A DNA stretch of 29,844 nucleotides from a virus (taxonomy: Duplodnaviria; Caudoviricetes): the IMG/VR virus record IMGVR_UViG_3300010148_000073, positions 1 to 29,844 of that record. The stretch is one strand, 5' to 3'. Positions 1 to 24,247 of this stretch are shown here, in pieces (the first letter of the stretch is position 1; each line of letters opens with the position of its first letter). A model generated the notes under the pieces. It ran no database searches and had not been told where the DNA came from. It was given only the letters and a program-made list of their open reading frames with translations. A program made the position numbers and the translations under genes.

Positions 1-2
1 AA

Positions 3-11
3 TGTTTATAG
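3..11 (+). promoter_or_regulatory. Archaeal TATA-box-like promoter element (TGTTTATAG)
   Basis: TTTATA at 5-10 lies about 30 nt upstream of ATG 38. The same 9-mer recurs at 9849-9857 upstream of the MCM-like gene. Confidence 0.5.
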
Positions 12-37
12 CCCTGTTTCGCCCGAGGCCGGGTTCC

Positions 38-901
38 ATGAAGTTAGAAGACATGATTCACGATGCAGAACACCCCCTCAGTGCAATCAAAGAGATGCTC
101 TCTGAGGGCAACCTCCCAGATTTGCTATTGCACGGCCCACCCGGAACAGGCAAGACGACCACTGCCCACGCCATTGCCAGTCACGTAGGGGCTGAGATAC
201 ACGAGTTCAACGCCTCTGATGAGCGTGGTATAGATTTCATACGCAACAGAGTCAAGGAAGTAGCCACACAAAGAGGCTACAGCGACCACACAATCATTCT
301 GCTCGATGAGGCTGACGGCCTCACCAAGCAAGCACAGGACGCTCTCAGGCGCATAATAGAGACTGGCCATGCTCTATTCATACTGACAGCGAACGACTAT
401 GCGAACATCACAGGCGCATTGAAGTCACGCTGTCTGGCATTCAACTTCAGACCATACAACGCAGAGGAGGTACTGACTCTACTGCAGACAAGGTTCCCTA
501 ACCTTACCACAGAGCACTCAGCCATAGTGGCAGCCGCATGGAACGGCGACCTCAGGGAAATCAGCAGAGCCATGGAGAGAGCGACTAGTGTGGACAATCT
601 AATTGCCATAGCAGGGAGCACCGCACAAACCTACGCAAACCCCTCACTATCTATCGTTGGAGGCGATTGGGAGAGTCTGAGAAAGGAACTGCTCATACTA
701 ACCGGAGTCTCTACCATTTCAATGTTAAATAGGTTGCACGATAAAGTGCGACAACTTGATATGGAGCCTGCTAGGTTCCATCACTATTCCCGCATCTGGG
801 GAGATGCAGTGCTGGCCGCCCATCAATGGCCCCTCGGCTACGAGGGGTTTGTTGATTGGTTCGTGGGTAGTCTCGCTTCCTTGTGGGATAAGGAAGAGTG
901 A
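38..901 (+). CDS. rfcS: Replication factor C small subunit (clamp loader AAA+ ATPase)
   Basis: LLLHGPPGTGKTT Walker A, EFNASDERGID, ILLDEAD Walker B, AQDALRRIIE and ALKSRC (SRC motif). Start at ATG 38 is inferred; the frame is also open from position 2. Confidence 0.93.
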   Translation: MKLEDMIHDAEHPLSAIKEMLSEGNLPDLLLHGPPGTGKTTTAHAIASHVGAEIHEFNASDERGIDFIRNRVKEVATQRGYSDHTIILLDEADGLTKQAQDALRRIIETGHALFILTANDYANITGALKSRCLAFNFRPYNAEEVLTLLQTRFPNLTTEHSAIVAAAWNGDLREISRAMERATSVDNLIAIAGSTAQTYANPSLSIVGGDWESLRKELLILTGVSTISMLNRLHDKVRQLDMEPARFHHYSRIWGDAVLAAHQWPLGYEGFVDWFVGSLASLWDKEE

Positions 902-906
902 AGAAA

Positions 907-2217
907 ATGAGTGATAATGAATTACCGGAAGAAGTGAAAGAAAGATTGCGATGGTACGCTGAGCAACACAGCGTGTCAGAGGACGAGGCAGCAAAGCAGT
1001 ACCTCGACTACATCGAGGAGCATCTCGGCATCGTCAACCCAAACGAAGAGGATGAGGACTTCCTCGTTGACGCAGCAGAGACGTTCGTCGTTGAGAGAAG
1101 AGTCATGCAGGCTCCCGGCGGTAGCACCGTCGAGTGGGTAGGCTGTTTCATAGCCATCGAGCCAAAGATACGCGACAAGAGAGCCAACATCCGAGAGCAG
1201 GCACTGTCAGAGGCCAGAAAAGACCTCACTAACGCCATCAATGGTGGGAGGATAGCACGTGCCTTCGTTGAGAATGGTGTGTGGATGCTTGAGAAGGCCA
1301 ATGGCATAGTAGCCTCCACGCAAGAAAGGTTCGTAGAGGGTGAAGACCCATGGTTCCTAGTGAGGGACAGTGGGATGACTCTCTGTTTGCTGCAAAGCAA
1401 CCCTGACTGGGCACGACATGGAGAGCCAATCGCACCGTCTCTGTTCAGCAGAACCTACAGGTTCTACGGGAACGAACCTCAGATGTACGCCGATGACATG
1501 CAGGCCATACGCATTGACGTAGGAGGAGCGACTGAAGAGGACGTTTCCAAGGCTGTCAGGATAGGGCAGGCGTGTAAGATACAATTACGCCCACAAGGCA
1601 CTGTCACTGAGGGTTGGGAGGACTCCTATCGCGCTGCTAACAACTTCTTCGCCAACGTAGTCTACACAGACGATTTCGTGGAAGAGAGCGACAGGCAGTA
1701 CCTCAAGGGAGAGATTCTCATGGGCGGCATGGATTCCTATGTCGCTGATTTGACTGAACTGATGGAGGTCTACCAGAACCAATCTGAGAAGGTATCTGGC
1801 TATGACACCCCCGTTGGTCCTCTCGTTTGCATCAAGGGAAAGGTAACTGACATCAACAGGACCGGATATGAGACTGAGTACGACCCATACGGCAAAGATT
1901 TCAGCATGAGAGTATCCTCCTTCCAATTACAGAGGGAGTTCGCCAATGACATGTGGAGGAAGGAAATCACTGTCAGAGTACATGGTTTCCTAGGTGACGA
2001 GTGTCACGCATTCGACTACGAGGGTCGTGAGGGGTGGAAGCCCTATGCAGTGAAGTCCACGGTCTACATCTTCGGTAGGCTCGGTGTGAGAGCCACTGAT
2101 GACGGGCAGGTCCCTGCCATGAAGGCCATGGGCATTTACGTCCCTCCTCGGCTGGCAATCCCAGCCGGTGAGGGTGGCGACACGAGCCTAGACCAGTTCG
2201 GCGGTGGTGGGCAATGA
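907..2217 (+). CDS. Probable ssDNA-binding (OB-fold, RPA-like) protein with PIP-like C-terminus
   Basis: OB-like strands VCIKGKVTDI and TVYIFGRL. Flexible tail GEGGDTSLDQFGGGGQ. Lies between the clamp loader and the ATPase. Alternative GTG start at 898. Confidence 0.55.
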   Translation: MSDNELPEEVKERLRWYAEQHSVSEDEAAKQYLDYIEEHLGIVNPNEEDEDFLVDAAETFVVERRVMQAPGGSTVEWVGCFIAIEPKIRDKRANIREQALSEARKDLTNAINGGRIARAFVENGVWMLEKANGIVASTQERFVEGEDPWFLVRDSGMTLCLLQSNPDWARHGEPIAPSLFSRTYRFYGNEPQMYADDMQAIRIDVGGATEEDVSKAVRIGQACKIQLRPQGTVTEGWEDSYRAANNFFANVVYTDDFVEESDRQYLKGEILMGGMDSYVADLTELMEVYQNQSEKVSGYDTPVGPLVCIKGKVTDINRTGYETEYDPYGKDFSMRVSSFQLQREFANDMWRKEITVRVHGFLGDECHAFDYEGREGWKPYAVKSTVYIFGRLGVRATDDGQVPAMKAMGIYVPPRLAIPAGEGGDTSLDQFGGGGQ

Positions 2218-3188: not shown

Positions 3189-3419
3189 GTGTCACGAAAA
3201 CTCATCATACCTGAAAATAACTGTGAGCGCTGTGACGGCCTAGGAGTGCTAATGAAGATAGTTGACACTCTCCATGGGAAGGACTTCGACCCGGTGATGT
3301 GCGATTGCTTGCTAGAGAAGCAATATAGCGAAGACCGAAAAGTTCTTATACACGACGCATGCGAGGCCGCGCCAGAATTGGGACACTGCTCTAAAGGGGT
3401 GAGAGAATCACCCGAGTGA
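3189..3419 (+). CDS. Small Cys-rich putative zinc-finger protein
   Basis: CERCDGLG...CDC pattern. GGTGA SD, GTG start directly after the previous stop, GTGA overlap with the next gene. Confidence 0.6.
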   Translation: MSRKLIIPENNCERCDGLGVLMKIVDTLHGKDFDPVMCDCLLEKQYSEDRKVLIHDACEAAPELGHCSKGVRESPE

Positions 3420-4156
3420 GTCTCGGCAAGGCTGGCCTCATCTCATTCTTGACAGGATTCGGACCGGGAGTGGGTGACCTACGTCTCAAGGCAGCACAGA
3501 TGTCGCTGTCTGGGACGGTCGCTCTCCCCACACACATGCTGCACACGAGAATCAGTGCCACTGTGGATGACGCTGGTGACATAGTCATAGCCGACTTGGC
3601 TAAACTGCTGACGTTCGTCAAGACGCTACCACAGGACGCATTAGTGAGTCTGTGGCAGCCTAAGAACAGCACCTTGAGGGTCATATCAGGCAAGACTGAA
3701 CTGACCCTGCCTACCACCGACTATGTAGCCTCACACAAGAACGTGACCAAGGCCATGGCGTTGGTGACAGATGCAGAGAACAGCAACTGGAAGTCATGGG
3801 CAGGCAAGGCACTCACGTGCTACGGGAGACTGCAAGTGGCTGACTTGACTCAACTGAAGTCAGTAGAGAAAGTGATTGGCAAGGACACCCCTGTCACGAT
3901 GAAGTTCGACCCCAATGAAGAGCATCTCGAGTTCGCTGCAGGGGCACGTGGCAGTGCGTCGATGTCCATCTGCGTAGACGTGGAGGACTGTGACGGTCCC
4001 GAGGCCAAGTCCCACTACGGGTCTTGGCTGCCTCAAGTGCTGCACATGATACCTGCTGGTTCGGTAGAACTTTACACTGCCAATGACTTCGTGTGCATAT
4101 TCCGTCACACCGAGAAGGACCACCTACTACTAGTGATGGATAAGAGAGGTGAATGA
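3416..4156 (+). CDS. Probable divergent DNA sliding clamp (PCNA-like)
   Basis: 246 aa matches PCNA size. Two-domain alternating helix/strand pattern ending HLLLVMDKR. Directly upstream of polB in a block that also has RFC. Canonical motifs are weak. Confidence 0.6.
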   Translation: MSLGKAGLISFLTGFGPGVGDLRLKAAQMSLSGTVALPTHMLHTRISATVDDAGDIVIADLAKLLTFVKTLPQDALVSLWQPKNSTLRVISGKTELTLPTTDYVASHKNVTKAMALVTDAENSNWKSWAGKALTCYGRLQVADLTQLKSVEKVIGKDTPVTMKFDPNEEHLEFAAGARGSASMSICVDVEDCDGPEAKSHYGSWLPQVLHMIPAGSVELYTANDFVCIFRHTEKDHLLLVMDKRGE

Positions 4157-4157
4157 G

Positions 4158-6476
4158 ATGATTGTGGATGACTACTACGAAAACGGCGAGACTCCCATTA
4201 TCTACACACGATATCGTGATGCTGACGGGACTCTGATAGAGGACAGTGTCAGGCACTACAAGCCTTACTTCTGGATTCCTGCTAATGTAGGGGAGTTCCG
4301 CAAGCGCAGACTGCTAGTCAGATATCCGGGCACCGTCATCACCGATGAGACATCAGTGGGCTTGGACGGCACTCCACTCGTCAAGGTCGAGGCTGAGTCT
4401 CCCTTCGATATCATCAGTATGAGGAGGGAGTTCGACAAGACCTACGAGGCTGACATCAGATTCACAGACAGGTGGTTGATAGACAACGTCCCTGTCATGC
4501 CAGAGTGGAAGCCACGCAAGTGGTGGTTCGACATAGAGGCAGACCCCGAAGAGGGCTTCACTACCATCATCGCTGTGATAGATAGCGACTTAGACACACC
4601 AGTGGTATTCGCATGGGCAGACGAGCGAACCAATTGCTCTTACGATGACAGGCTTGCCTTGTACTATCGTGAAGTGCGTGACGTAACCTACGAACTAAGG
4701 TTGTATGGCTCAGAGTCTGAACTCCATGAGGGATTCGTAGAGTTCCTACAGGAACGTGACCCTGACATGCTGATAGCACACGCAGGTTCCTTCTTCGACA
4801 TACCTCACTTGATAGAGAGGATACCCAACCCCCAGAGGCTCAGTCCAGTGGGGCAGATACGTAAGATGAAGAGAGGGAAGGACAGGTATGACCCCACCGA
4901 CCAGCCCATAGTGGGTAGGTGGCAGTTCGATACGGCGGCACAGGCTGTCACTGGCACTGGCTTTGAGCGTGTCTGGAAGGACAGTGGTGGCGGACAACTG
5001 CCATCACTCAAACTAAACGACATCGCTGAGACTGTGGGCTTGGGCTCCAAACTAACTGAGGATATAGAGGGGATGGATGTCTACAATGGATGGTACGAGT
5101 ATTGGGATGACTTCGTAGACTACTGTCTGCTTGACACTCATTTGCTACGAGGGATAGACGAGGCACGGAACGTGACTGACTTCTACGTAGAAATGGTCAG
5201 ACTATGCGGAGTCTCCCTCCCATCAGCCTGTAATGTCACTAACTTCGCTCGAGGGCTACTGTCTCGAAGGACTGACAAGAAGGCACACACTCGATTCAAG
5301 GCGGGTGACATTGACAAACTCAAGGGGGCCGAGGTAGGCCTCAATTGTGTGACAGGCCTTCATGAGGGTGTAGGTGTCATAGACTACAAGGGACTGTATC
5401 CCTCGATAATTCTAGGCAGCAATCTGTCATACGAGACGAAGAGAGACGGGCCCGGTGAGAACATCATCCAGTTGGAGAATGGTTCGTACTGGGACCAGTC
5501 GGAGCAAGGACTGCTTCCCTCTGTGGTGCAGTATCTCTTCGAGTACCGTGACACATGCAAGCAACGCATGCGAGACGCCGAGACTCTAGAGGAGAGAGCG
5601 GCATGGAACACCACACAGATGGCAGTCAAGAGAGTGATGGCCAGCCTCTATGGTATGTGTGCTCACATCGGCTATGGGTGGGCTGATGGTGACATCGCAC
5701 ACACTATCACTCAAGAGGGCAGGCGTTGCATCCGCCTCCTAGATAGCGTGGCCACCACCTACGGATACGAGTGCCTCTACGGACACACGGACTCGGCATT
5801 CGTCAAGGTCCCCAACGTGGAAGAGGCACACAAACTCGCTGACAAGATAACAGTGGCAGTGCAGAGGGAAACAGGCAACAACATGCTCTTCGCTGAACTG
5901 GAGGCTTGGATGCCCTATTGGCTACTGACCAAGAAGAACAGGTACGTAGGCAAGATAGTCTGGCCAGAAGAGGAGGATGGCAAACTCAAGGTAGCAGGCT
6001 TCGGTATGAAGGCATCGAACACTGCACCCCTATCCAAGAAGATACAGAAGGGAGTGTTCGAGTTGATATGTGATGGCGCTAATGAGGATGCTGTTCAGGA
6101 GTTCGTGTACCCCATAGCCATGAGCGTCAGGAAGGGCGACGTTCAATTGGAGGATGTGTCAATGAAGACCAGATTGAGTATGGACTTGAAGGACTACAAG
6201 GTGCTCAGTGGTGCATCAAAAGCAGCGTCCTTCTATAATGACAAATTCGACGAGAAGTTTGGCAAAGGTGACTCGGTTCCATGGACTTACGTCAAAGAGG
6301 AGCCGGGCATCGCAGCCTATCGTGAACCAGAGGATTTGGAGGGTCTCACATTGGATTCAGATATGATTTTGAAGAAAATGCTAAAGACCAAGTTGGACAG
6401 TATCTATTCTACCCTTTCTTGGGACTTGGACGGAGCACTCGGTGCACCCACTCCCAAGGCTTACGGGTGGTGGTGA
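4158..6476 (+). CDS. polB: Family B DNA polymerase, archaeal type
   Basis: ExoI FDIE, ExoII FFDIPHL, ExoIII YCLLD, motif A DYKGLYPSII, motif B KRVMASLYG, motif C YGHTDS, KKNRY. GAGGTGA SD at 4146-4152 favours ATG 4158. Confidence 0.97.
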   Translation: MIVDDYYENGETPIIYTRYRDADGTLIEDSVRHYKPYFWIPANVGEFRKRRLLVRYPGTVITDETSVGLDGTPLVKVEAESPFDIISMRREFDKTYEADIRFTDRWLIDNVPVMPEWKPRKWWFDIEADPEEGFTTIIAVIDSDLDTPVVFAWADERTNCSYDDRLALYYREVRDVTYELRLYGSESELHEGFVEFLQERDPDMLIAHAGSFFDIPHLIERIPNPQRLSPVGQIRKMKRGKDRYDPTDQPIVGRWQFDTAAQAVTGTGFERVWKDSGGGQLPSLKLNDIAETVGLGSKLTEDIEGMDVYNGWYEYWDDFVDYCLLDTHLLRGIDEARNVTDFYVEMVRLCGVSLPSACNVTNFARGLLSRRTDKKAHTRFKAGDIDKLKGAEVGLNCVTGLHEGVGVIDYKGLYPSIILGSNLSYETKRDGPGENIIQLENGSYWDQSEQGLLPSVVQYLFEYRDTCKQRMRDAETLEERAAWNTTQMAVKRVMASLYGMCAHIGYGWADGDIAHTITQEGRRCIRLLDSVATTYGYECLYGHTDSAFVKVPNVEEAHKLADKITVAVQRETGNNMLFAELEAWMPYWLLTKKNRYVGKIVWPEEEDGKLKVAGFGMKASNTAPLSKKIQKGVFELICDGANEDAVQEFVYPIAMSVRKGDVQLEDVSMKTRLSMDLKDYKVLSGASKAASFYNDKFDEKFGKGDSVPWTYVKEEPGIAAYREPEDLEGLTLDSDMILKKMLKTKLDSIYSTLSWDLDGALGAPTPKAYGWW

Positions 6477-6480
6477 AAAA

Positions 6481-6600
6481 ATGGAAGAAGGAAAGACAAA
6501 ACAAATGAGGCAAACGACGCTGTGGGAGTTCCTCCCCGGCAATGGAAGACAGACCACCTTGGAGGAGTTCGGTGTCAGAAGAACAGCAAATACCCACTGA
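6481..6600 (+). CDS. 39-aa microprotein with two tandem PIP-box-like motifs (not in ORF track)
   Basis: Manual translation MEEGKTKQMRQTTLWEFLPGNGRQTTLEEFGVRRTANTH*. GGTGA SD at 6472-6476. Fills the gap between polB and the next gene. Confidence 0.75.
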   Translation: MEEGKTKQMRQTTLWEFLPGNGRQTTLEEFGVRRTANTH

Positions 6601-6853
6601 CGCTGTGCTCTGGCGGGTGGCTCACCTACTTCGTGAAAAGAACGAGAAGTATGGCGATAGCGCTCTTGACCCAATGAGATTATTCTACAAAGGTGGAAAC
6701 GACGCTGCTGACATGATTAGGATACGGATAGATGACAAGTTGTCTCGACTGGCACGTGGTAGTGAGGGTATCGAGACAGACCTCGACATCTATCATGACC
6801 TCATTGGTTACCTCGCGCTTCTCATAGTAGCACTAGAGGGCGGTGAGAAGTAA
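6572..6853 (+). CDS. Nucleotide-modification-associated domain 1 (Nmad1/DUF1599-like, all-alpha) protein
   Basis: LLREKNEKYGDS...RIDDKLSRL...DLIGY pattern. GGAGG SD at 6561-6565 favours GTG 6572 over ATG 6542. Confidence 0.7.
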   Translation: MSEEQQIPTDAVLWRVAHLLREKNEKYGDSALDPMRLFYKGGNDAADMIRIRIDDKLSRLARGSEGIETDLDIYHDLIGYLALLIVALEGGEK

Positions 6854-7773
6854 TGGGTTTGACTCTGGTCTATGATGACCAATCATCCTATGCTTGGGCA
6901 CCCAAGATGGGAGAAGAGGACATTATAATCAGAGTGAGTAAATCCACACTTACTGCTAGTAAGTGGTGCCCCAAGCAACTGTGGTTGTCAAAGACTCATG
7001 AGGTTCCGCAGTTGCAGCACGATTACCTAGTGATAGGTGACGATGTGCATCAGAGCATGGAAGCGTTCTATGACAACATAGATGCTGACAATATCCCACT
7101 GCTGAAAGAAGCGGCAGAAGAGGGCAAGGACCGATTGGTGATGGAGCAACTCAGGACATACCTCCCTAGCCGTGACGAGGTCATCGGCATGAGGAGAGAT
7201 TCCTCAAAAGACGAGCCCTTCTATGAGTTGGAGTATGACCATAACATCACGTGGTTGCTTCGGAATGAGATACTCAGACTGTCTCTCACCGAGGCAAAAC
7301 ATTTCTTACCTGTAGCAAACGAGGTGAAACTCTCACCGAGAGCCACGTTCCATGTAGATGACAGGGAAGTGAAAGTGCAACTAGTGGGTATCATTGACCG
7401 AATCTTCAGTGAGGGTGAGAGCGGTCTGGCCCTGATGGAGTTGAAGACAGGGAAATGGCACCCAAGGAAACTGTCTGCCATGAGAATGGAAATGGCGTAC
7501 TACAAGATGCTCATCGAACTGTCTACTGAAGACGAATTGAAAGAGGCAGGGCTCAATGACAAGATGGTCACTCATTGGGGCTGGCGATACAGCGCAGCAG
7601 ACAGGCTTGACTACGAGCCAGTGAAGAGAGTGAGCGAGCGTGCTATGCAGACATCGTTGAACAAACTGCTACGCATGTACGTGGACCAAGAGTTCCCTGT
7701 CACTAAGGACGACTTCAAGTGTTCTTACTGTGACTACATGGACCTCTGTCCGAAGTTCAAGGTGGAAGCATAA
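6853..7773 (+). CDS. Cas4/AddB-like PD-(D/E)XK nuclease with probable Fe-S cluster
   Basis: N-terminal CPKQ, GDDVH, GIIDRI, MELKTG and C-terminal CSYCDYMDLC (1+3 Cys arrangement). Confidence 0.88.
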   Translation: MGLTLVYDDQSSYAWAPKMGEEDIIIRVSKSTLTASKWCPKQLWLSKTHEVPQLQHDYLVIGDDVHQSMEAFYDNIDADNIPLLKEAAEEGKDRLVMEQLRTYLPSRDEVIGMRRDSSKDEPFYELEYDHNITWLLRNEILRLSLTEAKHFLPVANEVKLSPRATFHVDDREVKVQLVGIIDRIFSEGESGLALMELKTGKWHPRKLSAMRMEMAYYKMLIELSTEDELKEAGLNDKMVTHWGWRYSAADRLDYEPVKRVSERAMQTSLNKLLRMYVDQEFPVTKDDFKCSYCDYMDLCPKFKVEA

Positions 7774-8054
7774 TGGACAGAGACTTCCGCATTGCAGTAG
7801 AAGAAATCAGGTGGTCGGCAAAGGACCAACTGCGGCAAGCGATGGTAGTCTCCTTGAGAAAGCAGTTCGGCAGTAACAATGTATTCATGCACTTCTCTGA
7901 CGATATCCCCAGAGGGCTACTGGTAGACCCAGTGCCAATTGGGGATTCCTTGGACATCAGGATACCGAAGGACCTCAGTCCTACATCAGTCGAAGAACTG
8001 TACTTCGCGTGTGTGAGTGCTTGTCAAGAATTTAAGTTGGGTGAAAGAGAATGA
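7773..8054 (+). CDS. Hypothetical protein (93 aa)
   Basis: TAATG and ATGA overlaps with both neighbours. No motif recognised. Confidence 0.7.
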   Translation: MDRDFRIAVEEIRWSAKDQLRQAMVVSLRKQFGSNNVFMHFSDDIPRGLLVDPVPIGDSLDIRIPKDLSPTSVEELYFACVSACQEFKLGERE

Positions 8055-11930: not shown

Positions 11931-12052
11931 ACCTACTAGAAGACGCTCCTGCAGGTTTCTTTCAGACTTTCTACATCACCATGTGTGAGTACCTCAATGT
12001 CGACCCCGACGCACTATTCATCCAATTAATGGAGGAAGCAAACAATGAGTGA
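11924..12052 (+). CDS. 42-aa acidic microprotein (not in ORF track)
   Basis: MVNLLEDAPAGFFQTFYITMCEYLNVDPDALFIQLMEEANNE*. GAGGTGA SD at 11916-11922. Overlaps both flanking genes; the start could be GTG 11927. Confidence 0.65.
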   Translation: MVNLLEDAPAGFFQTFYITMCEYLNVDPDALFIQLMEEANNE

Positions 12053-13568
12053 GCAAGAAAAGCAAAGCGGAAGAGAAGCACAAATGAGCAACATAAAGGC
12101 AGCCATGAACGTGGCTGAGACCGTAAGGTCTACCCTAGGTCCAGCAGGTATGGACAAGTTGCTGACGAACGGCAGCCACCACACTGTGACTAATGACGGT
12201 GTCACTGTCCTGAGAGAACTGGACATCGCACACCCCGGTGCACAGATGATGGTGGAAGCAAGCAAGACGCAAGAGGCAGTGTGCAAAGACGGCACTACCA
12301 GCGTCGTTGTGACAGCAGGCCAGATGCTGGCTCTCAGCCAAGGCCTATTGATGAGAGGCATACACCCACGTGTGCTCATCAGGTCCTTCCAAGAGGGTAA
12401 GAACCTAGCACTAGAGCACCTCGAATCTCAGGACATCGAGATTCTGGACGCAGCCAAGACCGCACTACGAGGTAAGGCTGCAGAGAGCGACTTGGATTAC
12501 GCTGCTGAGTTGTGCTTGAAGGCGTGCGAGAAGGCCGCAGGCAATCTGGACCACATCACTGTCATCACACAAGCAGGTGGTGCACTGTCAGACTCCTACG
12601 TCCAAGACGGGCTTGTCATCAACAAGGAGTTCGCCAATGAGGTAGAGAACAAGTCAGTGGAAGGCAACATCAACATCCTACTACTCAACGGAGGACTAGA
12701 GGGGTACGACATCAAGGAAGTGCAGATGCAAGTCGAGAACATGCAGCAGTTGCACGAGTTGAAGCAACAGGAACTAAACATGCTGAGCGAGGTCGCTTCC
12801 ATGGTGGCCGGTGCAGTAGGGCCAGACGGTGTTGTCTTCGTGAGGGACAGCGTGCATGAGGCAGTAGCACACTACCTCTCCCAGCACGGCATCCCGCTAG
12901 TCACACGTTTGCAGCAAAGCGATATGGAAGGCTTGTCCAGATTGTTGGACGTGCCCATCTACCACAGAGTGACTGATGTTGATGAGCCCATCATGGCAAC
13001 AGACGCATCTGTCAAGCAAGAGAGGATAGGTGACTTGGATTTCATCACTGTATCAGGTAGTGGTGAGGCTACGTGCCTAGTAGTCAGAGGTGCCACCAGA
13101 CAGACCATAGAGGAATACGAGAGAGCATTCGACGATGCCATTGGCGTCACCTGTCTGGCCATGAGTGACGGAGGCAAGGGTTTCCCCGGTGGCGGGGCCT
13201 CTTTCTCAGCAGCATCCATGACTGTGAGAGAGCATGCAGCCACAAGGCCCAACATGACAGCGAGAGAGAGGATGTGTCTCGAGGCATACGCAGACGCTCT
13301 GGAGATTATACCAGCAGCGATAGCGAACAACGCAGGCATGGACCCACTAGACGTGGTCATGGAACTTAGGTCGGCTGAGGACGGTGTCGGCCTGTACATA
13401 GACGATAGAGGGGTCGGTGAGATATGCAACACACTAGAGAAAGGAGTGGTGGAGCCAGAGTCTCTGGTGAAGCAAGTCATCAGCAGTGCGACTGAAGTAG
13501 CCACTGCCATCTTGAGGATAGACGACATCATGGCAATGAGGGAAGACAATGGAAACCTTGTTGGCTAA
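12045..13568 (+). CDS. Group II chaperonin (thermosome subunit)
   Basis: STLGPAGMDKLL, VTNDGVTVL, DGTTS, RGAT...EEYERAFDDA, PGGGA, LEIIPAAIANNAGMD, GVVEP, AILRIDD. Helical-protrusion-like segment present. GGAGG SD. Confidence 0.97.
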   Translation: MSEQEKQSGREAQMSNIKAAMNVAETVRSTLGPAGMDKLLTNGSHHTVTNDGVTVLRELDIAHPGAQMMVEASKTQEAVCKDGTTSVVVTAGQMLALSQGLLMRGIHPRVLIRSFQEGKNLALEHLESQDIEILDAAKTALRGKAAESDLDYAAELCLKACEKAAGNLDHITVITQAGGALSDSYVQDGLVINKEFANEVENKSVEGNINILLLNGGLEGYDIKEVQMQVENMQQLHELKQQELNMLSEVASMVAGAVGPDGVVFVRDSVHEAVAHYLSQHGIPLVTRLQQSDMEGLSRLLDVPIYHRVTDVDEPIMATDASVKQERIGDLDFITVSGSGEATCLVVRGATRQTIEEYERAFDDAIGVTCLAMSDGGKGFPGGGASFSAASMTVREHAATRPNMTARERMCLEAYADALEIIPAAIANNAGMDPLDVVMELRSAEDGVGLYIDDRGVGEICNTLEKGVVEPESLVKQVISSATEVATAILRIDDIMAMREDNGNLVG

Positions 13569-15473: not shown

Positions 15474-18400
15474 CTACAAGTCAAATGCCACATACAGTAT
15501 CCCTGAAACGTGAGTCACACTACCGCCGCTTGTCTGCCTCTTTATCAAAAGAATGTCATCTGCGGCGACAGTCAGTGGACTTGCTAGTTCAACTGTTGTG
15601 GTATAGTTAGTACCAGTTGGATTCGATAGTGAGGTTCTTGCGACATCGACATCTAAAGTTGTCTCCGAACCCCCGCTAAATTTCCTTATTCGCCATGTGT
15701 CTGTTCCTGAATTAGTGGTTATAGAACCAGCATAGTAGTGAAGAGAGAGAGCCATTACCTTACCTGCTCTCGGCATTGGATAACCGTTTGGATTGACAGT
15801 CCCATCACCGCCCGGAGGTACACGCAAATCAACAGTCCCGCTTCCCATGCTTGTCCTCTGGTAGTAATACTTCTGCATGGTATTGAAAGATGATTTACTA
15901 TCGCTCTTTACATTACCAGCGACTGTAATACCATCGGCATCAGAGTGGATTCTGAATCTCTCTGTTGCCGCCCCGCTTGAGATGCTGCTTGTACCGGCAT
16001 AGAATATCAAGTCGTTAGCATTCTCAATTCTCCAATCGTTGTAGTTGTCACCACTACCCCATGTATCATGCGTCCCTCGCATCAGTTCTATTCTTGGCGT
16101 AGGGCTTGAGTTAGTATCCGCATGAACCCTGATTGTCTTAAGCGGGTTATCATCTTGGAACATGATAGCCCCACCGGCTTTTATCCTCATCCTCTCGACA
16201 GCAGCAGTGTCATCGTTTTGGTCAATGGGTGATGTGAAGAATGTTAAAGTCCCACCCTTGTCACCTGAACCATGGGCTTCTGCGGCATAAGCCGCCATAC
16301 CAGCAGATGCTTCAAGCACACTACTTGGGTCATTACCATCTACGGAATCAAAACCAATCCCACCAAGTAAATCACCACCAGCAGTTGATGTATCTGCTCT
16401 GACAATCATCATTCCGTTATCGGCATCAGCGCCAGTGTGATTGATTTGGAATCTATTCTCAGGTGTTACAGTGCCTATTCCTACCTTACCATCACCCTCT
16501 ATACTCATACGGGTGTTGTTTCCGTTGGTCTTGAAAACAATGGGGTCTGTGTCTTCTGTTCTAATTTGAAGACCGTCATTTGAATGGTCGCCAATTACCT
16601 TATTGCCGCCATCAAAGGTGATACTTTTGTCATTTCCAGTCACAGTGATGGTACCGGCTACTTCTAATTCTGTCGAAGGAGTCGTAGTGCCTATTCCGAC
16701 ATTACCTTCGTTCGTTCCACCATTGTCTATGGCTAGTCTTGTAGTACCATCATTTGTTGCTACTGAAATAAAACTTGAACCTGCGGCTAAATACCCCTTA
16801 CCAGCAGAATCACCGAATGCAATACCACTTGTGGTATTATTTGTTCCCACGACTGTCACATCTAGGTGAGCAGTTGGGCTTGTATTGTTTATTCCAACCT
16901 TACCAGATGCGTCAACGATTACCCTTGCTTCGGTATTCACCTCATCATAGATGGAAAACTTATCAGAGTTGTTTGCTAACTTACCAAGACTCCACTTGTT
17001 CGTTCCTCCCTCTGCGAAGAACACTACTGAATATCCATCATCGGGCGTGTCTATCTTTATCCCTGCGTTGGCATCTGTTGATTCAAATATCGCTAAGTCA
17101 TTTGCGGCAGATTTAACGTGTAGTGGTGCATCATCGGCATCCAAAGCACCGATACCTACGTTGCCCCCTAGTGGGTTGAGAACTATTTGTCTAGCCCCAT
17201 CGGTGTGTGTCCTCCCCTGAATGTATAGTGGGTAGGGGCTTGCGTTGTGCAGACCGAATGCAAACTCGGAGTTTTCGTTCGTGAATATCTGTCCAGCACT
17301 CGCACCGAATGTCAATGATGCCGCCGCAAGTGAACCTCTATCGACATGAAGTTTTGCACTAGGACTCGTAGTGCCTATTCCGAAATTACCTGACGTATCG
17401 AACCTAGCAGCCTCTCCACTACCCCAAGTTCCATTGTTCACACAGAACTTAATGCTCTTATTACCTGAACCGCTTTGTAGGTTCAATGCGTCACCATGAT
17501 AGCCAACCGAGGCTCTTGCGTCAGCAAACGTCATTTGGGTAGGCACATTGCCTTCGCCCATCTTAGCGATAACACCAGTGGAATGTTCGACATGGAGTGG
17601 TGCGTCTGGTGCTGTAGTGCCTATACCTAGTTTGCCTGAGATGTAGTTTTTGTCTTCGTCATTGATGTACAGTCCCCATTTGGTCGTCACTTGGTCTGAT
17701 TGACTGACAGCATAGTCTCCGTAGTAGAGGAATCCCTCATTGACTACTGCCGAGTCACCACTTGCGTCTGTGACGTTGTGGTCGAATACCGACTCAACCA
17801 CCCTCGCCCAGTTTATCGTGATGTCACCGCCTGTTCGGGAACCACCGATGTCTACCTCTCCTGAGAGACCACGTAGGTTGTTGATGTTCGCTGCTCTGTT
17901 ACCTGAGACGACTGTAAGCCCTCTAGTACCATGTGTATTACTTACTGTCCCGGTGTCTTGTATTGACACATAACCGTATGTACCATACATGGCAGATACG
18001 GTTGGTGCAGCATTGGTGCCATCGCTTGCCGATACCCCATAAACACCTGCCATCGCACTGATGTTTGTCATACCGGAGGTTCCGTTCCTCTGGTCCTCTG
18101 CATACCCATAGATAGCATAGACAGCGTCCGCGTCACCACTGGCACTGATTCTGGTATCAGACCAGACACCGTACAGCCTGTGCTCGTCGGATAGGTCGCC
18201 GCCCGTCGCGTTAGAAACAGCGTTCACGTACAAGCCGCCTTGCTCTCTGTCGCCGCCTGTTGCCGTGCTTCCAGTCGAGTCGTGGTCGATGAAGAGGCCG
18301 AAGTCGTTATCTACAGATGAGTCTGTAGCATTGTGGTCAATGGTCTGGTTACCCGTAAGGCCCAGTATAGTCCCATCAAAGGTGAGTGCGGACTCACCGT

Positions 18401-21400
18401 TCAGAGCATCAGCACTACTGAACGTGGCTATCCTATTGTTAGAGCCGTTAGCGACTGCCGAGACTGCTCCACCACCACCAGAAGCAGCAGCGAATGACAA
18501 GTTACCAGCACCGTCTGTTTGTAGGACGTGTCCGTTAGACCCGTCAGCAGGAGGTAATTTCCAGATTACATTCGCTGAATAAGCAGAATCATCAGGAGAC
18601 TCGAAGCCAACGTAGTGATTGTTGTTCTCGTCATAGAATCTTGCTTCTGTTTGTGCCATCAGCCTCAAGTCACGGAAAGTCAAAACATGGTCAGACATTA
18701 TTCTAAAGTTGTTAGAGCCATTTACATCGAAGTAAATTCCTGTTTGACCATCTATGTTCAATAGTCCTGTATCGTTTTGTATTAGACCCTCACTACCACT
18801 GTGGTTGATGAACATATCATTGTCTGCACCAAAGTATAGTTTCTGACTATCTATAGGTAAAGAGATATGACCTGTGTCAGAATTAATCTTCAACCTAGCA
18901 ATGCTGTTATCAGTATATACCTCAGCAGCATTGTAACTACCCATTGGGTCAGAAGTACCTGAAGTTAATTCTAAGTTCCCACGCCCGTAAGCATCAGTGG
19001 CGACGAACCTAACACCAGCACCTACTCTACTGCCAGTCTCCCCTGATGAGTCCTCGTTGTTGTAGAACAGCAGGCTTCCAATCTTATCACCAGCAGCGTG
19101 TGCTGCATCTCTGCTGTTCAGAAGTATGGTTGGGTTATTGGTGGCGGTTACATCTAACAACGCTCTAGGAGTTGTACTACCTATTGCTACATCTACATTT
19201 TCAATAGCAAAGTTTCCGTCAGAGGGGAAACTGAGTGCTTGCGTGCCATCACTCGCATTCTTGATTTTGTATGCTCCTTGACTGATGTGAATGTCATTGT
19301 TTTGCACAAACAAATCTCCACCAGTCACTTGGAGTTTGTGAGAAGGAGATGTAGTGCCTATCCCGACTTTCCCTTGGAAGTAGACTTGAGCATCCTCTAT
19401 CTTCACCCTCGTAGTGCCTTGCGTCTTGAGTTGTATAGGTGAAGCAGCGTTTGCAGTAATGATGTCCAAGTTTGTCCCTGATGTAATGAATCTGACATCG
19501 AAGTCATCTGAGAATGGGTTCTTCATGTCTATGAAAGCACCCGATGGGCCACCCATTTCTATGCTAGAGTAGCCGCTACTTCTCTCAAGATTCAACCGTT
19601 GAGCAGTGAAGTCACCAGCGTAATTGTTTGTGATGAAACCAGAGTCATTGTTGAATGCTGATAGTGGTATCTCCGAAATGAGTTTTCTCTTGTCTGCTCC
19701 GTTGTCTAGGATGATAAGTTCATCTTCTGAACTAACGACTGCTTGTGTCATGTCAGGAAGTTCGGACATGTCGAGAGTGAGTGTGACGCTACCACTGCCT
19801 CCACCACCAGATATCCCTACGCCTGCACTGACGTTGGTGATGTCACCAGTGGTGGTGCTGTACCCATAGGACTCAATCTTGTCCTGTATGGCTGCTGATG
19901 TCATCAGGCTGGTGTCGTTGTCAGCGAAGGACTCGCTGCTCGTCTGCAGGCTACCGGCTGCGAGTTCTGATACAGTGAGACCAGCGACGTTGAACGTGAG
20001 TGTCTCATCACTTTGCTGATTGAGGGTGAAGGCACCACCACCAGTCAAGCCTGTGCCTGCTGATAGGGTTATCTCATTGTTGTAGAGGTCATGGGTGGTG
20101 ATGACATTCCCGTTCTGACGTAGGTCACCAGTCAGGTTGATGTCACCTGCCACGTCTAGTTTGTAGGAAGGCGTAGTATCGCCTATTCCGAGCCTCCCAG
20201 CAGAAGTGACTCTCATTGCCTCTGTTCCCGAAGCATCAGTATCAGCATTCAACGCCGCAGTATAGAATCTAATATCGGTTGCAGGTTCTCCTGTTCCCGT
20301 TCCACCACCCAAATACAATCTATTAGTGGTAGCATCTGCATAACCATAGATTAGGTTGTAATCGTTATTGGTGTAAGTCCTACCTAATATCCTTGAGTCC
20401 TTTACAGTATTATCAGAATCGGTGTTTGTTATCATTACGTTGCCAACAACGTGTAGTGGTGTCTGTGGGCTTGTAGTGCCTATTCCGACCTTGCCATTAG
20501 AAGCAATAGTTACTCTATCAGTTCCGGCAGTTTGGAATGTCTGAGTATTATTACCGAAGATTAGTCTGTTTTGTCCGGTTTGACCTGCGTGTGCCAAGGC
20601 GTAAGCAACCGCAAGGCTACCCTCCACGTGCAACTCTGCTTCTGGAGTTTCAGTGAGGATTCCGACCCTGCTGTTTTCTGTAATGGTCATCGCAGTAGCG
20701 AGCGTGGTAGAAGAACCAGAAGGTGTGGTCTGGAACTTCAAACCACCTGCTAAATTACCACCATCGTTGTAGGCAAGAACCCTAGCAGCACTGTATGTCC
20801 CTGTGTCGGTTCCGCTATTGTCGTTGTTGGAGAAGGTAATCTGCCCAATTGTATTCTCAGCATTTCTAGCACCATGAAGGAGAATGTTTGCTTGTTGGCC
20901 GCTAGTCGCTGTTGTCTGTACCGATAGAATGGGCGAGCCTGAACCTTGTGTAATTAGATTCGTGTTCGATGCACTACCATCGAATGTGAGATTCGCCTCT
21001 GCATTCATGGCGTCTGTACCAGTCGCAGTGACCAGTCTGTTGTTACTACCATTGGTCATGAAGTCAGAGACATCCACGCTCACCGTATCACCAGTGAGGT
21101 CAATGCCTGTACCTGCTGCGAGGTTCGTGTTGTCACTGATATCTATGCTTGACAGCAGAGCCATGCTGCCAAGGCCTAGGTTCGTGCGAGCGTTGGATTT
21201 CTGCGTACCAGTGAGTCCCTGTGACGCTGTGTCCACTCGGAGCCTGTTGCCCAGTGCAGTGGTCATTGTGGTGTGGAACGAGGCATCATCGTTGATAGCA
21301 GCAGCCAACTCGTTGAGCGTGTCGAGCGTACCCGGTGCTGAGGCTATCAAATTCGAGACTTCAGTATCCACGTAAGACTTGATGGATTGTTGGGTAGCCA

Positions 21401-24059
21401 AGTGACTGGCTGAGTTCGAGGCCATGTTATCTTCGTCTAAGACCGGCACTACCAAGTCCACAGTGTCATCAGATGTCTGGTATGTCGCAGTGATGAAAGT
21501 CTCAGTGTTGCCAGTGAACATAGCCCCGGCGAAGTCCTTGACTTGAGCCCCTGTCAATTGGGTATCAGGGTTGGTGATTGTCATGACGAATGGGTCGCCA
21601 GTGGTTCCAGCGCCAGACCAGTTGGTTCCTGCTGTCCCCGTGGCCGATACGAACTTGATGAACTTGCCTTGCGCTATGGTTTTCGCATCGTTATCGTCGT
21701 CTCTGATGGTGAATGTCGTGAGTTGATTGGTGTTGGTAGCGTTGAGAGTAGTGCCACTGAAAGCCAAGTTACTGCCTGCCGTGAGGAACTTCAAGACGCC
21801 AGCGCTGTCATCCCAGAACAGTATCCTGTCAGCGTTGGGGTCACTGAGATTCTCGAGACCTAGGTGGCTCAATGAGATGGTGCCAGAACTTGTGATGCTG
21901 CCCCCAGTTAGGCCCGTGCCCGTGGCTACGCTGGTGACCGTCCCTGTTGTGGTGCTGTACCCATAGGACAGTATCTTGTCCTCTATCGCAGCACTGGTCA
22001 TCAGGCTGGTGTCGTTATTGGCAAAGGACTCCGAACTGGTCTGGTACGCATCAGCATGCAATGAGCCGAAGGGTATGTTTGCAATGGACAGAGTGTCACC
22101 TGTCAGGCTGAGGGGCGATGAGGCACTCAGGTTCGTGTTATCGCTGATGTCAACAGCGGACAGGGTGGAGAGTGTACCCAGACCCATGTTAGTCCTAGCG
22201 TTGGACTTCTGGGTGCTGGTCAAGCCTTGTGAGGCAGTATCTACACGCACTCGATTGGACAGGGCAGTGGTAATCGTGGTATGGAAGGACGCATCGTCAT
22301 TGATTGCAGCAGCCAGTTCGTTCAGTGTGTCCAACGCACCGGGAGCACTGTCAATCACATTGGATACTTGTGTATCGACATAGGCCTTGATTGATTGCTG
22401 CGTAGCAAGATGGGTGGCTGAGTTAGAGGACAGGTCATCCTCGTCATGGACAGGTACGACGAGGTCCACGGTATCGTCAGACGTCTGGTAGGTAGCGGTG
22501 ATGAAAGTCTCCGTGTTACCTGTGAACAACGCACCTGCTAGGTCCTTGACCTGTGCGTCAGTGCGCTGCTCTGCGACTACGAGGTCAATCGTCCCGTCAC
22601 TGTCCTGATATGTCGCAGTGATGTCGGTTTCAGTATTGCCTGAGAACATACCTCCTACTACGTCTTGGACTTCCTCCGTGGTGAGTGTGGGTGAGTCAAT
22701 GAACTCGAACGCAGTACCCCCAGAATTGACTCTGATATGCTGACCAGCAGAGCCTAGGGAGGATGGCGTGTCAGTCAGAGTGGTGAATGCCATGGTGCTG
22801 ATGGCTGCTTGGTAGTCACACCTGAGCCATGTGCTGCCCTCGAAGATGAAGGTGGCTCTCTGGTCAGGTAGCAGTGTGGTATTGAGGCCTGTCGAGTCGA
22901 ATACGATGTTGCCGCCGTTAGCGGCTGCGCTGTTGCACACCTCTATCACATGGCCTTCTGGGAAGAGGTAGGTAGAGCCACTCTTCTCTGGGTTGAGCGT
23001 GATAGTGGCGCCGTTTGCTGGGGCGAAGATGAACCACTTGTCCCCATGAGAGGATATGGTGTAAGATGCTGTGCTGAGGGCGCCTGTTGGTGCAGCCACT
23101 CCCTCTGTGAAGAGCCTCTTGGTGATGACCCCCGTCTCGTTGTTGTTCTGCCCAGCGAAGAAGAGGTCGTCATTCATCCTGTTTGAACTTCGGTCTACTC
23201 CATCACCGGGGCCGTACCCTAGGCTCGTGCCTGAACGCCCAGTCGACATCCACAGTGCTCCGACGTCAATCTTGGTGCTACCGTTGGTGTTGTTGCCCAG
23301 CACCCCAGCCTCATTGCCAGAGAACAGCGCGTTCAACTGCGCTGCGGTATTGATGCCCTCTGCTGCACCTTTGCTAATCTGACTGAGTTCGCTGCCGTCT
23401 GTGACTATGGTCCCAGAGGAAAGAGGGGTCATGTATATCGGGTTGGAGCGTGTGAATATCCTCTTGTCATTGACTTCCTGTACGTCTATCTTGTGTGTGC
23501 CACCACCTGCGTTGAAAGAGCACCGGAGTGTGGCAAGTGCGACGACTTGGTCATTCAGGATACTGCCACCCGTATCGTAGTCTATGAGGAATTGACTTGG
23601 TAATTGGGGGTACAGTCCGGTGCTAGTCTGAACTGGAGAACCACCATCGACGTGTATTCTGGCCATCCCTCCTTGTGAAGCCAAATAGACCACGTACATC
23701 GACTGTTCTCCAGATGCTGCCAAAGGCGTACCTGTAACGCCGAGGTTGCCACTGCCTATCGTCACAGTGACAGACCCTCCGGGCCCACCTCCGAACTCGT
23801 ACAGCACACCGTCTAGGACTACATACCCACCTTGCACGTTCAGCGTGTGAGTAGTATTTCTCACCACTGCTCCGGGTTGGTTGTTTACTGCATTTCTGGT
23901 AGAGCCGTAAGCGGTGTCTTGGAGCCGTATTATACCATTTCCTCTGAGGCCTTGTAGTAGATTGGATAGAGTGGTGGAGGAAAGAGCGTCACCGTCTCTC
24001 AGACCTTCGGCTCCAAGAGTATTCTGTGCTGCTGTATGTCCCCCTAGTGCGTCTACCAT
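15474..24059 (-). CDS. Giant modular tail fibre / receptor-binding protein (about 2861 aa)
   Basis: G/T/S/N-rich. Two APGxLDTLNELAAAINDD fibre motifs, 11 GxVGIGTTxPxxxLxV-like repeats and internal duplications. Followed by a chaperone. AGGTGA SD favours ATG 24059. Confidence 0.9.
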   Translation of the reverse strand: MVDALGGHTAAQNTLGAEGLRDGDALSSTTLSNLLQGLRGNGIIRLQDTAYGSTRNAVNNQPGAVVRNTTHTLNVQGGYVVLDGVLYEFGGGPGGSVTVTIGSGNLGVTGTPLAASGEQSMYVVYLASQGGMARIHVDGGSPVQTSTGLYPQLPSQFLIDYDTGGSILNDQVVALATLRCSFNAGGGTHKIDVQEVNDKRIFTRSNPIYMTPLSSGTIVTDGSELSQISKGAAEGINTAAQLNALFSGNEAGVLGNNTNGSTKIDVGALWMSTGRSGTSLGYGPGDGVDRSSNRMNDDLFFAGQNNNETGVITKRLFTEGVAAPTGALSTASYTISSHGDKWFIFAPANGATITLNPEKSGSTYLFPEGHVIEVCNSAAANGGNIVFDSTGLNTTLLPDQRATFIFEGSTWLRCDYQAAISTMAFTTLTDTPSSLGSAGQHIRVNSGGTAFEFIDSPTLTTEEVQDVVGGMFSGNTETDITATYQDSDGTIDLVVAEQRTDAQVKDLAGALFTGNTETFITATYQTSDDTVDLVVPVHDEDDLSSNSATHLATQQSIKAYVDTQVSNVIDSAPGALDTLNELAAAINDDASFHTTITTALSNRVRVDTASQGLTSTQKSNARTNMGLGTLSTLSAVDISDNTNLSASSPLSLTGDTLSIANIPFGSLHADAYQTSSESFANNDTSLMTSAAIEDKILSYGYSTTTGTVTSVATGTGLTGGSITSSGTISLSHLGLENLSDPNADRILFWDDSAGVLKFLTAGSNLAFSGTTLNATNTNQLTTFTIRDDDNDAKTIAQGKFIKFVSATGTAGTNWSGAGTTGDPFVMTITNPDTQLTGAQVKDFAGAMFTGNTETFITATYQTSDDTVDLVVPVLDEDNMASNSASHLATQQSIKSYVDTEVSNLIASAPGTLDTLNELAAAINDDASFHTTMTTALGNRLRVDTASQGLTGTQKSNARTNLGLGSMALLSSIDISDNTNLAAGTGIDLTGDTVSVDVSDFMTNGSNNRLVTATGTDAMNAEANLTFDGSASNTNLITQGSGSPILSVQTTATSGQQANILLHGARNAENTIGQITFSNNDNSGTDTGTYSAARVLAYNDGGNLAGGLKFQTTPSGSSTTLATAMTITENSRVGILTETPEAELHVEGSLAVAYALAHAGQTGQNRLIFGNNTQTFQTAGTDRVTIASNGKVGIGTTSPQTPLHVVGNVMITNTDSDNTVKDSRILGRTYTNNDYNLIYGYADATTNRLYLGGGTGTGEPATDIRFYTAALNADTDASGTEAMRVTSAGRLGIGDTTPSYKLDVAGDINLTGDLRQNGNVITTHDLYNNEITLSAGTGLTGGGAFTLNQQSDETLTFNVAGLTVSELAAGSLQTSSESFADNDTSLMTSAAIQDKIESYGYSTTTGDITNVSAGVGISGGGGSGSVTLTLDMSELPDMTQAVVSSEDELIILDNGADKRKLISEIPLSAFNNDSGFITNNYAGDFTAQRLNLERSSGYSSIEMGGPSGAFIDMKNPFSDDFDVRFITSGTNLDIITANAASPIQLKTQGTTRVKIEDAQVYFQGKVGIGTTSPSHKLQVTGGDLFVQNNDIHISQGAYKIKNASDGTQALSFPSDGNFAIENVDVAIGSTTPRALLDVTATNNPTILLNSRDAAHAAGDKIGSLLFYNNEDSSGETGSRVGAGVRFVATDAYGRGNLELTSGTSDPMGSYNAAEVYTDNSIARLKINSDTGHISLPIDSQKLYFGADNDMFINHSGSEGLIQNDTGLLNIDGQTGIYFDVNGSNNFRIMSDHVLTFRDLRLMAQTEARFYDENNNHYVGFESPDDSAYSANVIWKLPPADGSNGHVLQTDGAGNLSFAAASGGGGAVSAVANGSNNRIATFSSADALNGESALTFDGTILGLTGNQTIDHNATDSSVDNDFGLFIDHDSTGSTATGGDREQGGLYVNAVSNATGGDLSDEHRLYGVWSDTRISASGDADAVYAIYGYAEDQRNGTSGMTNISAMAGVYGVSASDGTNAAPTVSAMYGTYGYVSIQDTGTVSNTHGTRGLTVVSGNRAANINNLRGLSGEVDIGGSRTGGDITINWARVVESVFDHNVTDASGDSAVVNEGFLYYGDYAVSQSDQVTTKWGLYINDEDKNYISGKLGIGTTAPDAPLHVEHSTGVIAKMGEGNVPTQMTFADARASVGYHGDALNLQSGSGNKSIKFCVNNGTWGSGEAARFDTSGNFGIGTTSPSAKLHVDRGSLAAASLTFGASAGQIFTNENSEFAFGLHNASPYPLYIQGRTHTDGARQIVLNPLGGNVGIGALDADDAPLHVKSAANDLAIFESTDANAGIKIDTPDDGYSVVFFAEGGTNKWSLGKLANNSDKFSIYDEVNTEARVIVDASGKVGINNTSPTAHLDVTVVGTNNTTSGIAFGDSAGKGYLAAGSSFISVATNDGTTRLAIDNGGTNEGNVGIGTTTPSTELEVAGTITVTGNDKSITFDGGNKVIGDHSNDGLQIRTEDTDPIVFKTNGNNTRMSIEGDGKVGIGTVTPENRFQINHTGADADNGMMIVRADTSTAGGDLLGGIGFDSVDGNDPSSVLEASAGMAAYAAEAHGSGDKGGTLTFFTSPIDQNDDTAAVERMRIKAGGAIMFQDDNPLKTIRVHADTNSSPTPRIELMRGTHDTWGSGDNYNDWRIENANDLIFYAGTSSISSGAATERFRIHSDADGITVAGNVKSDSKSSFNTMQKYYYQRTSMGSGTVDLRVPPGGDGTVNPNGYPMPRAGKVMALSLHYYAGSITTNSGTDTWRIRKFSGGSETTLDVDVARTSLSNPTGTNYTTTVELASPLTVAADDILLIKRQTSGGSVTHVSGILYVAFDL
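16470..20489. repeat. Dispersed 11-17 nt direct repeat GTAGTGCCTATNCC inside the tail fibre
   Basis: Copies start at 16684, 17368, 17614, 19351 and 20473. Partial copies at 16470 (AGTGCCTATTCC) and 20181 (GCCTATTCCGA). Confidence 0.8.
19846..22043 (-). repeat. Duplicated ~34-aa fibre segment (about 19846-19946 and 21943-22043)
   Basis: QTSSESFA[ND]NDTSLMTSAAI[EQ]DKI.SYGYSTTTG occurs twice. Shared 21-mer GTGGTGCTGTACCCATAGGAC at 19852 and 21949. Confidence 0.85.
21121..22553 (-). repeat. Duplicated ~141-aa fibre shaft module (21121-21545 and 22129-22553)
   Basis: QVKD.AGA.FTGNTETFITATYQTSDDTVDLVVPV...LDTLNELAAAINDDASFHTT...QKSNARTN.GLG...DISDNTNL, repeated at an offset of 1008 nt. Confidence 0.9.
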
Positions 24060-24061
24060 TT

Positions 24062-24247
24062 TCACCTGCTCCTTGATACTCTTGTCAGCCCTATCTGTCT
24101 ACGCATCTTGGGCCTTCGCACTCCTATCTTAGAGTGTCGACTGTATTGCTTTTGCTTCTTCCTCTTGAGGTTCCTGTTAGATAGCCTCTTGACTCGGGCA
24201 GCGGCTAGTTTGGCAGGGCGTTGCGAGATGTAGGACCTGCGTGCCAT
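24062..24247 (-). CDS. Protamine-like highly basic peptide (about 61 aa)
   Basis: 23 Arg+Lys and no Asp/Glu. GGAGGT SD, start overlaps the upstream stop, ends just before the fibre start. Confidence 0.7.
   Translation of the reverse strand: MARRSYISQRPAKLAAARVKRLSNRNLKRKKQKQYSRHSKIGVRRPKMRRQIGLTRVSRSR

Follow-up and report, generated by a model that had tools for sequence, protein, structure and literature searches.

A conserved gene for a tandem PIP-box micropeptide directly behind polB in magrovirus-like viruses of marine archaea

What is encoded by the 39 codons that directly follow a viral DNA polymerase gene and whose predicted product carries, twice over, a motif of the PIP-box type, the general means of docking on PCNA? 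The question is raised by IMG/VR record IMGVR_UViG_3300010148_000073 (Caudoviricetes), of which a stretch of 29,844 nucleotides, referred to below as the window, was analysed at its full length. The virus encodes its own PolB, sliding clamp, RFC and primase together with a chaperonin, and its related contigs reach 105 kb, against ~90–100 kb for magrovirus-like viruses, a combination that marks it as magrovirus-like. The ICTV profile of magrovirus-like viruses lists PCNA, RFC and PolB and mentions no such peptide (PMC10768690). Among named viruses, haloarchaeal tailed viruses come closest, with 25% PolB identity. The chaperonin is of the thermosome type (12045–13568; PF00118, 2.4e-106) and lies inside the viral replication region; a pattern scan of genome contigs for the viral thermosome found no close relative. 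The Poseidoniales order is the likely host lineage, as indicated indirectly by the magrovirus literature, by gene content and by a single 2.2-kb contig binned in a Poseidoniales MAG. This contig, which may be a viral fragment within the bin, carries an ORF with ETRQTTLEEFGFEFD (L161:84–293, plus strand). PCNA was found in 23 of the 26 genomes of the order to which this MAG belongs.

The short ORF occupies positions 6481–6600 of the plus strand, from ATG 6481 to TGA 6598–6600, and its translation is MEEGKTKQMRQTTLWEFLPGNGRQTTLEEFGVRRTANTH (39 aa). The ATG lies 4 nt downstream of the polB stop codon (TGA 6474–6476) and is preceded, again at a distance of 4 nt, by a GGTGA Shine-Dalgarno-like site (6472–6476, plus strand) placed within the last polB codons; sites of the GGTGA or GGAGG type likewise precede most other genes of the window. 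The first box, RQTTLWEF (R10–F17, 6508–6531), overlaps no other plausible gene. The second, RQTTLEEF (R23–F30, 6547–6570), follows after an LPGNG linker, so that Q11 and Q24 are 13 residues apart. The two boxes are written in different synonymous codons, AGG CAA ACG ACG CTG TGG GAG TTC in the first and AGA CAG ACC ACC TTG GAG GAG TTC in the second. In all of these points, from the GGTGA site and the spacing to the divergent codons, the coordinates and the codon listing bear out the description given in the initial annotation of this DNA. Across the six-frame translation of the window (~59,700 codons), the loose motif Q..[LIM]..[FWY] is found 34 times, and the boxes of the micropeptide are its sole adjacent in-frame pair. 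A Pfam search of the 39-codon ORF returned no family, and the exact 39-aa sequence is present in the protein collection, where it has no name. Two contigs, both from the metatranscriptomic libraries of a single study, match positions 6338–6484 and 6418–6579 with zero differences, the remainder having no coverage. They are compatible with a transcript that runs from polB into the ORF, and are no proof of transcription.

Conservation of the ORF was assessed in an IMG/VR scan with the window PolB, which retrieved 78 related loci (54–100% identity); the 65 that include the 3′ end of polB were examined. Wherever PolB ends in YGWW (63–100% PolB identity), a small box-bearing ORF directly follows polB (33 of 33 loci), the position at which the initial annotation had suggested looking for a conserved QxxLxxF ORF in relatives. 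The small ORF starts 2–6 nt past the polB stop and contains one or two boxes of the RQTTLEEF type. Its start codon is ATG in most of these loci and TTG in L048, L049 and L051, where TTG is the start that yields both boxes; in L003, also among the 33, the contig ends directly after box 2. No box ORF was found in any of the 32 examined loci with a PolB ending in YW or LW. A coiled-coil ORF of 66–125 aa occupies the position after polB in 30 of these 32 loci, and in the remaining two the available sequence runs out. In the loci with a PolB ending in YW (L021–L078), this coiled-coil ORF shares a conserved segment, ...LARAVCELQEEL..., and ends in APTxVG.

The pattern of nucleotide substitution indicates what has been conserved. 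Among 23 distinct nucleotide versions of box 2, synonymous codon variants number 12 against 6 non-synonymous ones. The former involve AGA/AGG/CGA, CAG/CAA, four Thr codons, TTG/CTG and TTC/TTT, and the Q is invariant. It is likewise invariant among the 14 first boxes listed, which also display synonymous changes and have L or I at the hydrophobic position and F, W or Y at the aromatic one. Third-position variation with the residues kept is seen at all 8 codons of each box. RQTTLEEF, the sequence of box 2, is the ancestral and nearly invariant box. It is unchanged despite a different downstream gene in L011, L038 and L043–L047, and despite an indel-shifted frame relation to the downstream gene in L008 and L016–L020. 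By this measure both motifs are selected at the peptide level, as had been surmised earlier from the synonymous differences between the two boxes of the window. The stretch 6481–6600 is a real, conserved gene, which we consider distinct from a chance ORF above all because of its conservation in all 33 YGWW loci, and it is likely to be translated right behind the viral polB.

The textbook PIP core reads Q-x-x-[LIMV]-x-x-[FYW]-[FYW]. Both boxes of the micropeptide have the Q, the L and the first aromatic residue of this core, all of them conserved, and lack the second aromatic residue (F-L in box 1, F-G in box 2). The Fen1 tails of the Poseidoniales order likewise stop at the first aromatic residue: they read GQTSLFSF, GQTSLLEF or GQSTLLDF in five of five genes from five genomes of the order of the Poseidoniales MAG, and RNase HII tails in Poseidoniales-order genomes are similar. 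The micropeptide box thus appears to be of the type that ends Fen1 in these genomes, a match that supports the earlier assignment of both motifs to the PIP class. The disordered terminus that characterises this class is here represented by the entire product of 39 aa.

The same box also occurs as a C-terminal tail on proteins of related viruses. A viral N6_N4 DNA methylase (L123:2995–3963, minus strand; PF01555, 1.2e-54) ends in ...SQTTLEEFFN, a canonical PIP box that hints at clamp-coupled methylation of newly made viral DNA. A protein of 103–128 aa, which the 63% PolB clade encodes directly upstream of the primase-like gene (L048:7463–7774, L046:5490–5876), has the tail RQTTLREYF or RQTSLTEYL; the window protein in the equivalent position (7773–8054) has no such tail. 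Since these viral enzymes carry the box as a C-terminal tail, the clamp at viral forks is indicated as a binder.

The gene behind polB belongs to a wider family of micro-proteins, ~17–69 aa long (two database members are longer), with one or two RQTTLEEF-type boxes, whose genes lie within replication modules on contigs of marine archaeal viruses that agree with magroviruses in size and gene content. When 1.84 billion representative proteins were searched with a profile built from 21 peptides, 18 matched at E≤1e-3: 16 small proteins (29–111 aa) with the same boxes, mostly doubled, and two long repeat proteins. The matching proteins are 'hypothetical protein' or nameless in their sources, and some are encoded on contigs of 81–103 kb. 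One profile match, P0008 (436 aa), contains about nine repeats of ...QMTLEEFLP..., a PIP-like box many times over. A scan of viral contigs with P0005 gave a single, unrelated match.

A degenerate DNA pattern for RQTTLEEF had at least 81 matches in at least 80 IMG/VR loci. Among the matches listed, 31 lie directly after polB, many of them on contigs of the PolB-scan set, and 36 lie in micro-ORFs at loci without polB. A further seven belong to a double-box protein of 81–85 aa encoded after a PolB of 42–43% identity, three fall inside longer ORFs and four are off-target, with F in place of L. The protein of 81–85 aa (L094:2875–3117, minus strand, and six similar loci) has a CxxC pair along with RQTTLEEF and GQTKLTDFY, and its gene lies 315–509 nt after that of PolB. 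Four loci with micro-ORFs were checked by Pfam: in L083, L113 and L117 the micro-ORF lies ~1.1 kb upstream of a gene for ATP-dependent DNA ligase, and in L080 it is downstream of the RFC-S and MazG genes. In three of the records in which the micro-ORF locus has no polB, PolB is encoded ~10 kb away. A 252-aa ORF upstream of the L083 micropeptide has no likeness to the viral clamp alignment (A1) or to A4. In a check on whether the peptide-bearing viruses of the ligase context lack a clamp, the clamp profile A1 matched none of four viral records and PF00705 none of five, one of which is known to carry a clamp of the A1 type; neither result is therefore informative on clamp absence.

Two boxes are present in 25 of the 47 distinct peptides and a single box, with no other domain, in the other 22. 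The spacing from Q to Q is 13–15 residues in 24 of the 25 double-box peptides, and the ORF stops one residue past box 2 in four of the 47. The family shows that ORFs of 17–40 codons, which gene callers often drop, can rank among the best-conserved genes of these genomes. The marine archaeal viruses that carry it in their replication modules are abundant and uncultured.

The replication module of the window includes the candidate partners of the micropeptide. The family B DNA polymerase (4149–6476, plus strand; PF00136, E 2.5e-35) lacks a PIP box, its C-terminus reading ...KAYGWW. Upstream of it, 3416–4156 (plus strand) encodes a protein of 246 aa that is a sliding clamp of the PCNA type by its predicted fold and a candidate target of the peptide. 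The model (pLDDT 92.5, pTM 0.87) is a two-domain clamp with Foldseek TM of 0.70–0.71 to the archaeal PCNAs 3aix_A, 3lx2_A and 1rxm_A, and structures of PCNA bound to Fen1 and RFC-L peptides (1rxm, 1isq) are among its fold matches. At the level of sequence, this protein has a weak PHROG match, no Pfam match (neither PCNA_N nor PCNA_C) and no PDB sequence match, the clamp profile included. Its comparison with the profile of host-order PCNAs by hhalign gave a probability of 9.7%, with no detectable sequence likeness. The proposal that this gene encodes a divergent clamp has therefore held. The viral clamp diverges faster than PolB, with ~65% identity where PolB has ~85%, and 25–30% where PolB has ~57%. 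The module further comprises an RFC-small-like clamp loader subunit (2–901, plus strand; phrog_168, 2.3e-39) and a 439-aa OB-fold protein (898–2217) with tandem OB domains as in SSB, RPA or POT1, for which no Pfam, PHROG or PDB sequence match was found. The disordered C-terminal tail of the latter contains DTSLDQF (2179–2199, plus strand), which resembles a PIP box without the Q. Tails of the form GEGG-[DEN]-T-[ST]-x-x-Q-[FY] are conserved in both PolB clades. By its modelled fold, the 439-aa protein is likely a viral ssDNA-binding protein with a partner-docking tail.

A complex of the viral clamp with the micropeptide was predicted from an alignment of each, with three controls. The score was 0.50 (runs of 0.50, 0.52 and 0.00) against 0.01 for the best control. 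Of 157 solved complexes, 116 reach the mark of this procedure, as do 2 of 215 mismatched pairs; a passing score of no more than 0.60 is seen in only 18 of the 157 solved complexes and in both of the passing mismatches. Contact agreement between the runs was at least 0% and partner pLDDT at least 28, and the prediction yielded no interface. The prediction therefore lends weak support to docking of the peptide on the viral clamp. As PCNA–PIP complexes have already been solved, the pass may reflect likeness only. In this complex prediction, of a kind suggested earlier for the product of 3416–4156, the score lies above the best control but is weak, with one run at 0.00 and the interface missing.

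We consider it probable, on balance, that the micropeptide competes, as a free peptide, for the PIP pocket of PCNA-type clamps. The 39-aa product would occupy the pocket on which PIP-tailed enzymes dock, and this occupancy would keep those enzymes off the clamp. The viral PolB, since its tail is YGWW and not a PIP box, would escape displacement. The boxes are 5–7 residues apart, which by our own estimate probably puts two pockets of one ring out of reach, so that doubling of the box would serve either to raise rebinding or to join two rings. Counting against competition, a free peptide expressed alongside the viral replisome could also get in the way of PIP-tailed proteins that the virus itself encodes, and both boxes lack the second aromatic residue of the textbook motif.

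As to which clamp is the main target, the case for host PCNA falls a little short of an even call, and that for the virus's own clamp is weaker though still substantial, the remainder going to both or to neither. The match of the box to Poseidoniales-order Fen1 tails is a point for host PCNA, as are the near-invariance of the box while viral clamps have diverged beyond recognition and the presence of other tails on PolB and the SSB-like protein. The weak score of the modelled complex would favour the viral clamp, as would the position of the gene directly behind polB in the replication module and the occurrence of the box on viral enzymes that are expected to ride the clamp at viral forks. Both clamps may be targets, and the idea put forward in the initial annotation, that host PCNA is jammed while an immune viral clamp is spared, is left unsupported in its second part by the weak docking score on the viral clamp and by the box on viral enzymes. 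A stronger form of the proposal is that these minimal, often doubled PIP peptides are anti-PCNA weapons that would flood the host clamp and stop host replication and repair, the virus meanwhile relying on its diverged clamp and its YGWW-tailed PolB. We regard this as a tentative and rather doubtful extension; if true, archaeal viruses would have their first described host takeover factor aimed at the clamp.

A positive role for the same binding is less likely but deserves consideration: the two boxes might tie one ring to a second, or the clamp to a further protein of the viral replisome, and so aid replisome assembly as an adaptor. The recurrence in separate lineages of a tandem build with a fixed period of 13–15 residues would fit such bridging, and so would the position of the gene directly behind polB and, weakly, the docking score on the viral clamp (0.50 versus 0.01 for the best control, with one run at 0.00). 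Against it, the single-box members, which make up 22 of the 47 and have no other domain, could not form a bridge. The peptide shows no second binding surface, and PolB's own tail is conserved and different.

The resemblance of the DTSLDQF tail of the SSB-like protein to the box means that the true docking site of the peptide could be a non-clamp partner of that tail. Under this explanation, which seems to us quite improbable, the peptide would mimic the tail GGDTSLDQFGG and rival it for a site on PolB, primase or the clamp loader. The disorder of the tail and its conservation in both PolB clades are as this would have it, and in the YGWW clade DTSLDQFG can be set beside QTTLEEFG. However, the tail of the other clade has no L (DTSTTQY, DTNSNQF), so that no PIP-like helix is expected there; the invariant Q of the peptide is missing from the tail; and the box is far closer to the Fen1 tails of the Poseidoniales order.

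It is more improbable still that the ORF has no functional product and that its conservation is a by-product either of signals for neighbouring genes, for instance a Shine-Dalgarno site for the gene that follows, or of an RNA element. In its 3′ part, the ORF does overlap the downstream gene (6572–6853, plus strand; phrog_1485, E 4.8e-11), which likely starts at GTG 6572, and box 2 contains GGAGGAG (6561–6567, plus strand), the putative Shine-Dalgarno site of that gene, 4 nt before the GTG. This account is opposed by the third-position variation with kept residues in both boxes, of which box 1 overlaps nothing, and by the presence of the family in other gene contexts. An Rfam search of the ORF stretch found no family, and its RNA fold is not unusual (z-score −0.54), which argues against an RNA element. 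An earlier start of the downstream gene at ATG 6542 was rejected, as L002, a 99% relative, has ATA there. The equivalent codon of the L008/L016 clade is CTG, with no canonical start upstream of the conserved EEQIPTD. Two antisense ORFs, 6381–6674 and 6409–6597, were also rejected, as the substitutions fit the plus-strand frame instead.

Least credible of all is a programmed frameshift that would fuse the boxes to the polymerase as a recoded C-terminal extension: cellular PolBs with a C-terminal PIP box exist, the viral PolB is without one, and the ORF, whose start lies 4 nt beyond the polB stop, reads open upstream into polB, but we rejected such a fusion since the frame varies among relatives between +1 (start 2 or 5 nt past the stop) and +2 (3 or 6 nt) and each of the 33 loci keeps a start codon of its own, while in-frame stops lie 8–14 codons upstream in L004 and L016, no slippery heptamer is seen in the sequence, and, among the matches listed, the peptide gene occurs without polB in 36 other loci.

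With competition for the PIP pocket retained as the preferred reading, the micropeptide can be set beside several known systems. C-terminal PIP tails are known on archaeal Fen1, RNase HII, the RFC large subunit and PolB. The micropeptide shares with such tails the succession of Q, T/S, T/S, L, two residues and an aromatic residue (QTSLFSF, QTSLLEF and QSTLLDF in Fen1), but it is a stand-alone gene without an enzyme and its box is often doubled. Viral docking on a clamp through a short terminal motif is familiar from the clamp-binding tails of T4 gp33 and gp55 and from SIRV2 proteins that recruit host PCNA; unlike the micropeptide, those proteins have a second functional domain. Among cellular small proteins, TIP, p21 and Spd1 control the clamp via a PIP motif, and p21 and p15PAF are disordered PCNA binders of eukaryotes. 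The micropeptide resembles p21, p15PAF and Spd1 in being a short, disordered PIP carrier that would act by competition, whereas these are cellular regulators of at least 100 residues with other functions and the micropeptides are viral and ~17–69 aa long. In the account given in PMC10939359, Spd1 has tandem PCNA-binding motifs.

TIP, the Thermococcales inhibitor of PCNA, is a small archaeal PCNA binder that blocks PCNA; as described in PMC6204406, its non-canonical PIP motif is followed by a 17-residue amphipathic helix and it breaks the PCNA trimer. The micropeptide is likewise a small, putatively PCNA-directed protein in an archaeal context, but going by that description of TIP it is set apart by its canonical boxes and by having no such helix (PMC6204406). 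Another small virus protein aimed at a sliding clamp is the phage inhibitor Gp168 of Twort, which according to PMC8565349 sits in the DNA channel of the beta clamp of bacteria; it thus differs from the micropeptide in using the DNA channel instead of the peptide pocket, and there is no sequence relation between the two. The complex of Gp168 (7evp) is among the fold matches of the viral clamp.

No description of such peptides was found in the literature on magroviruses, PCNA, the PIP box and archaeal-virus sliding clamps, as far as searched, nor any virus-encoded family made solely of one or two PIP boxes. The family offers a short and easily synthesised probe of how these viruses handle the host replisome and of whether their diverged clamp belongs to the PIP network. 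Elsewhere in the window, two large ORFs on the minus strand (15474–24065, 2863 aa, and 26384–29818, 1144 aa) have no Pfam match, and the first of them contains repeated HLATQQSIK[AS]YVDT units.
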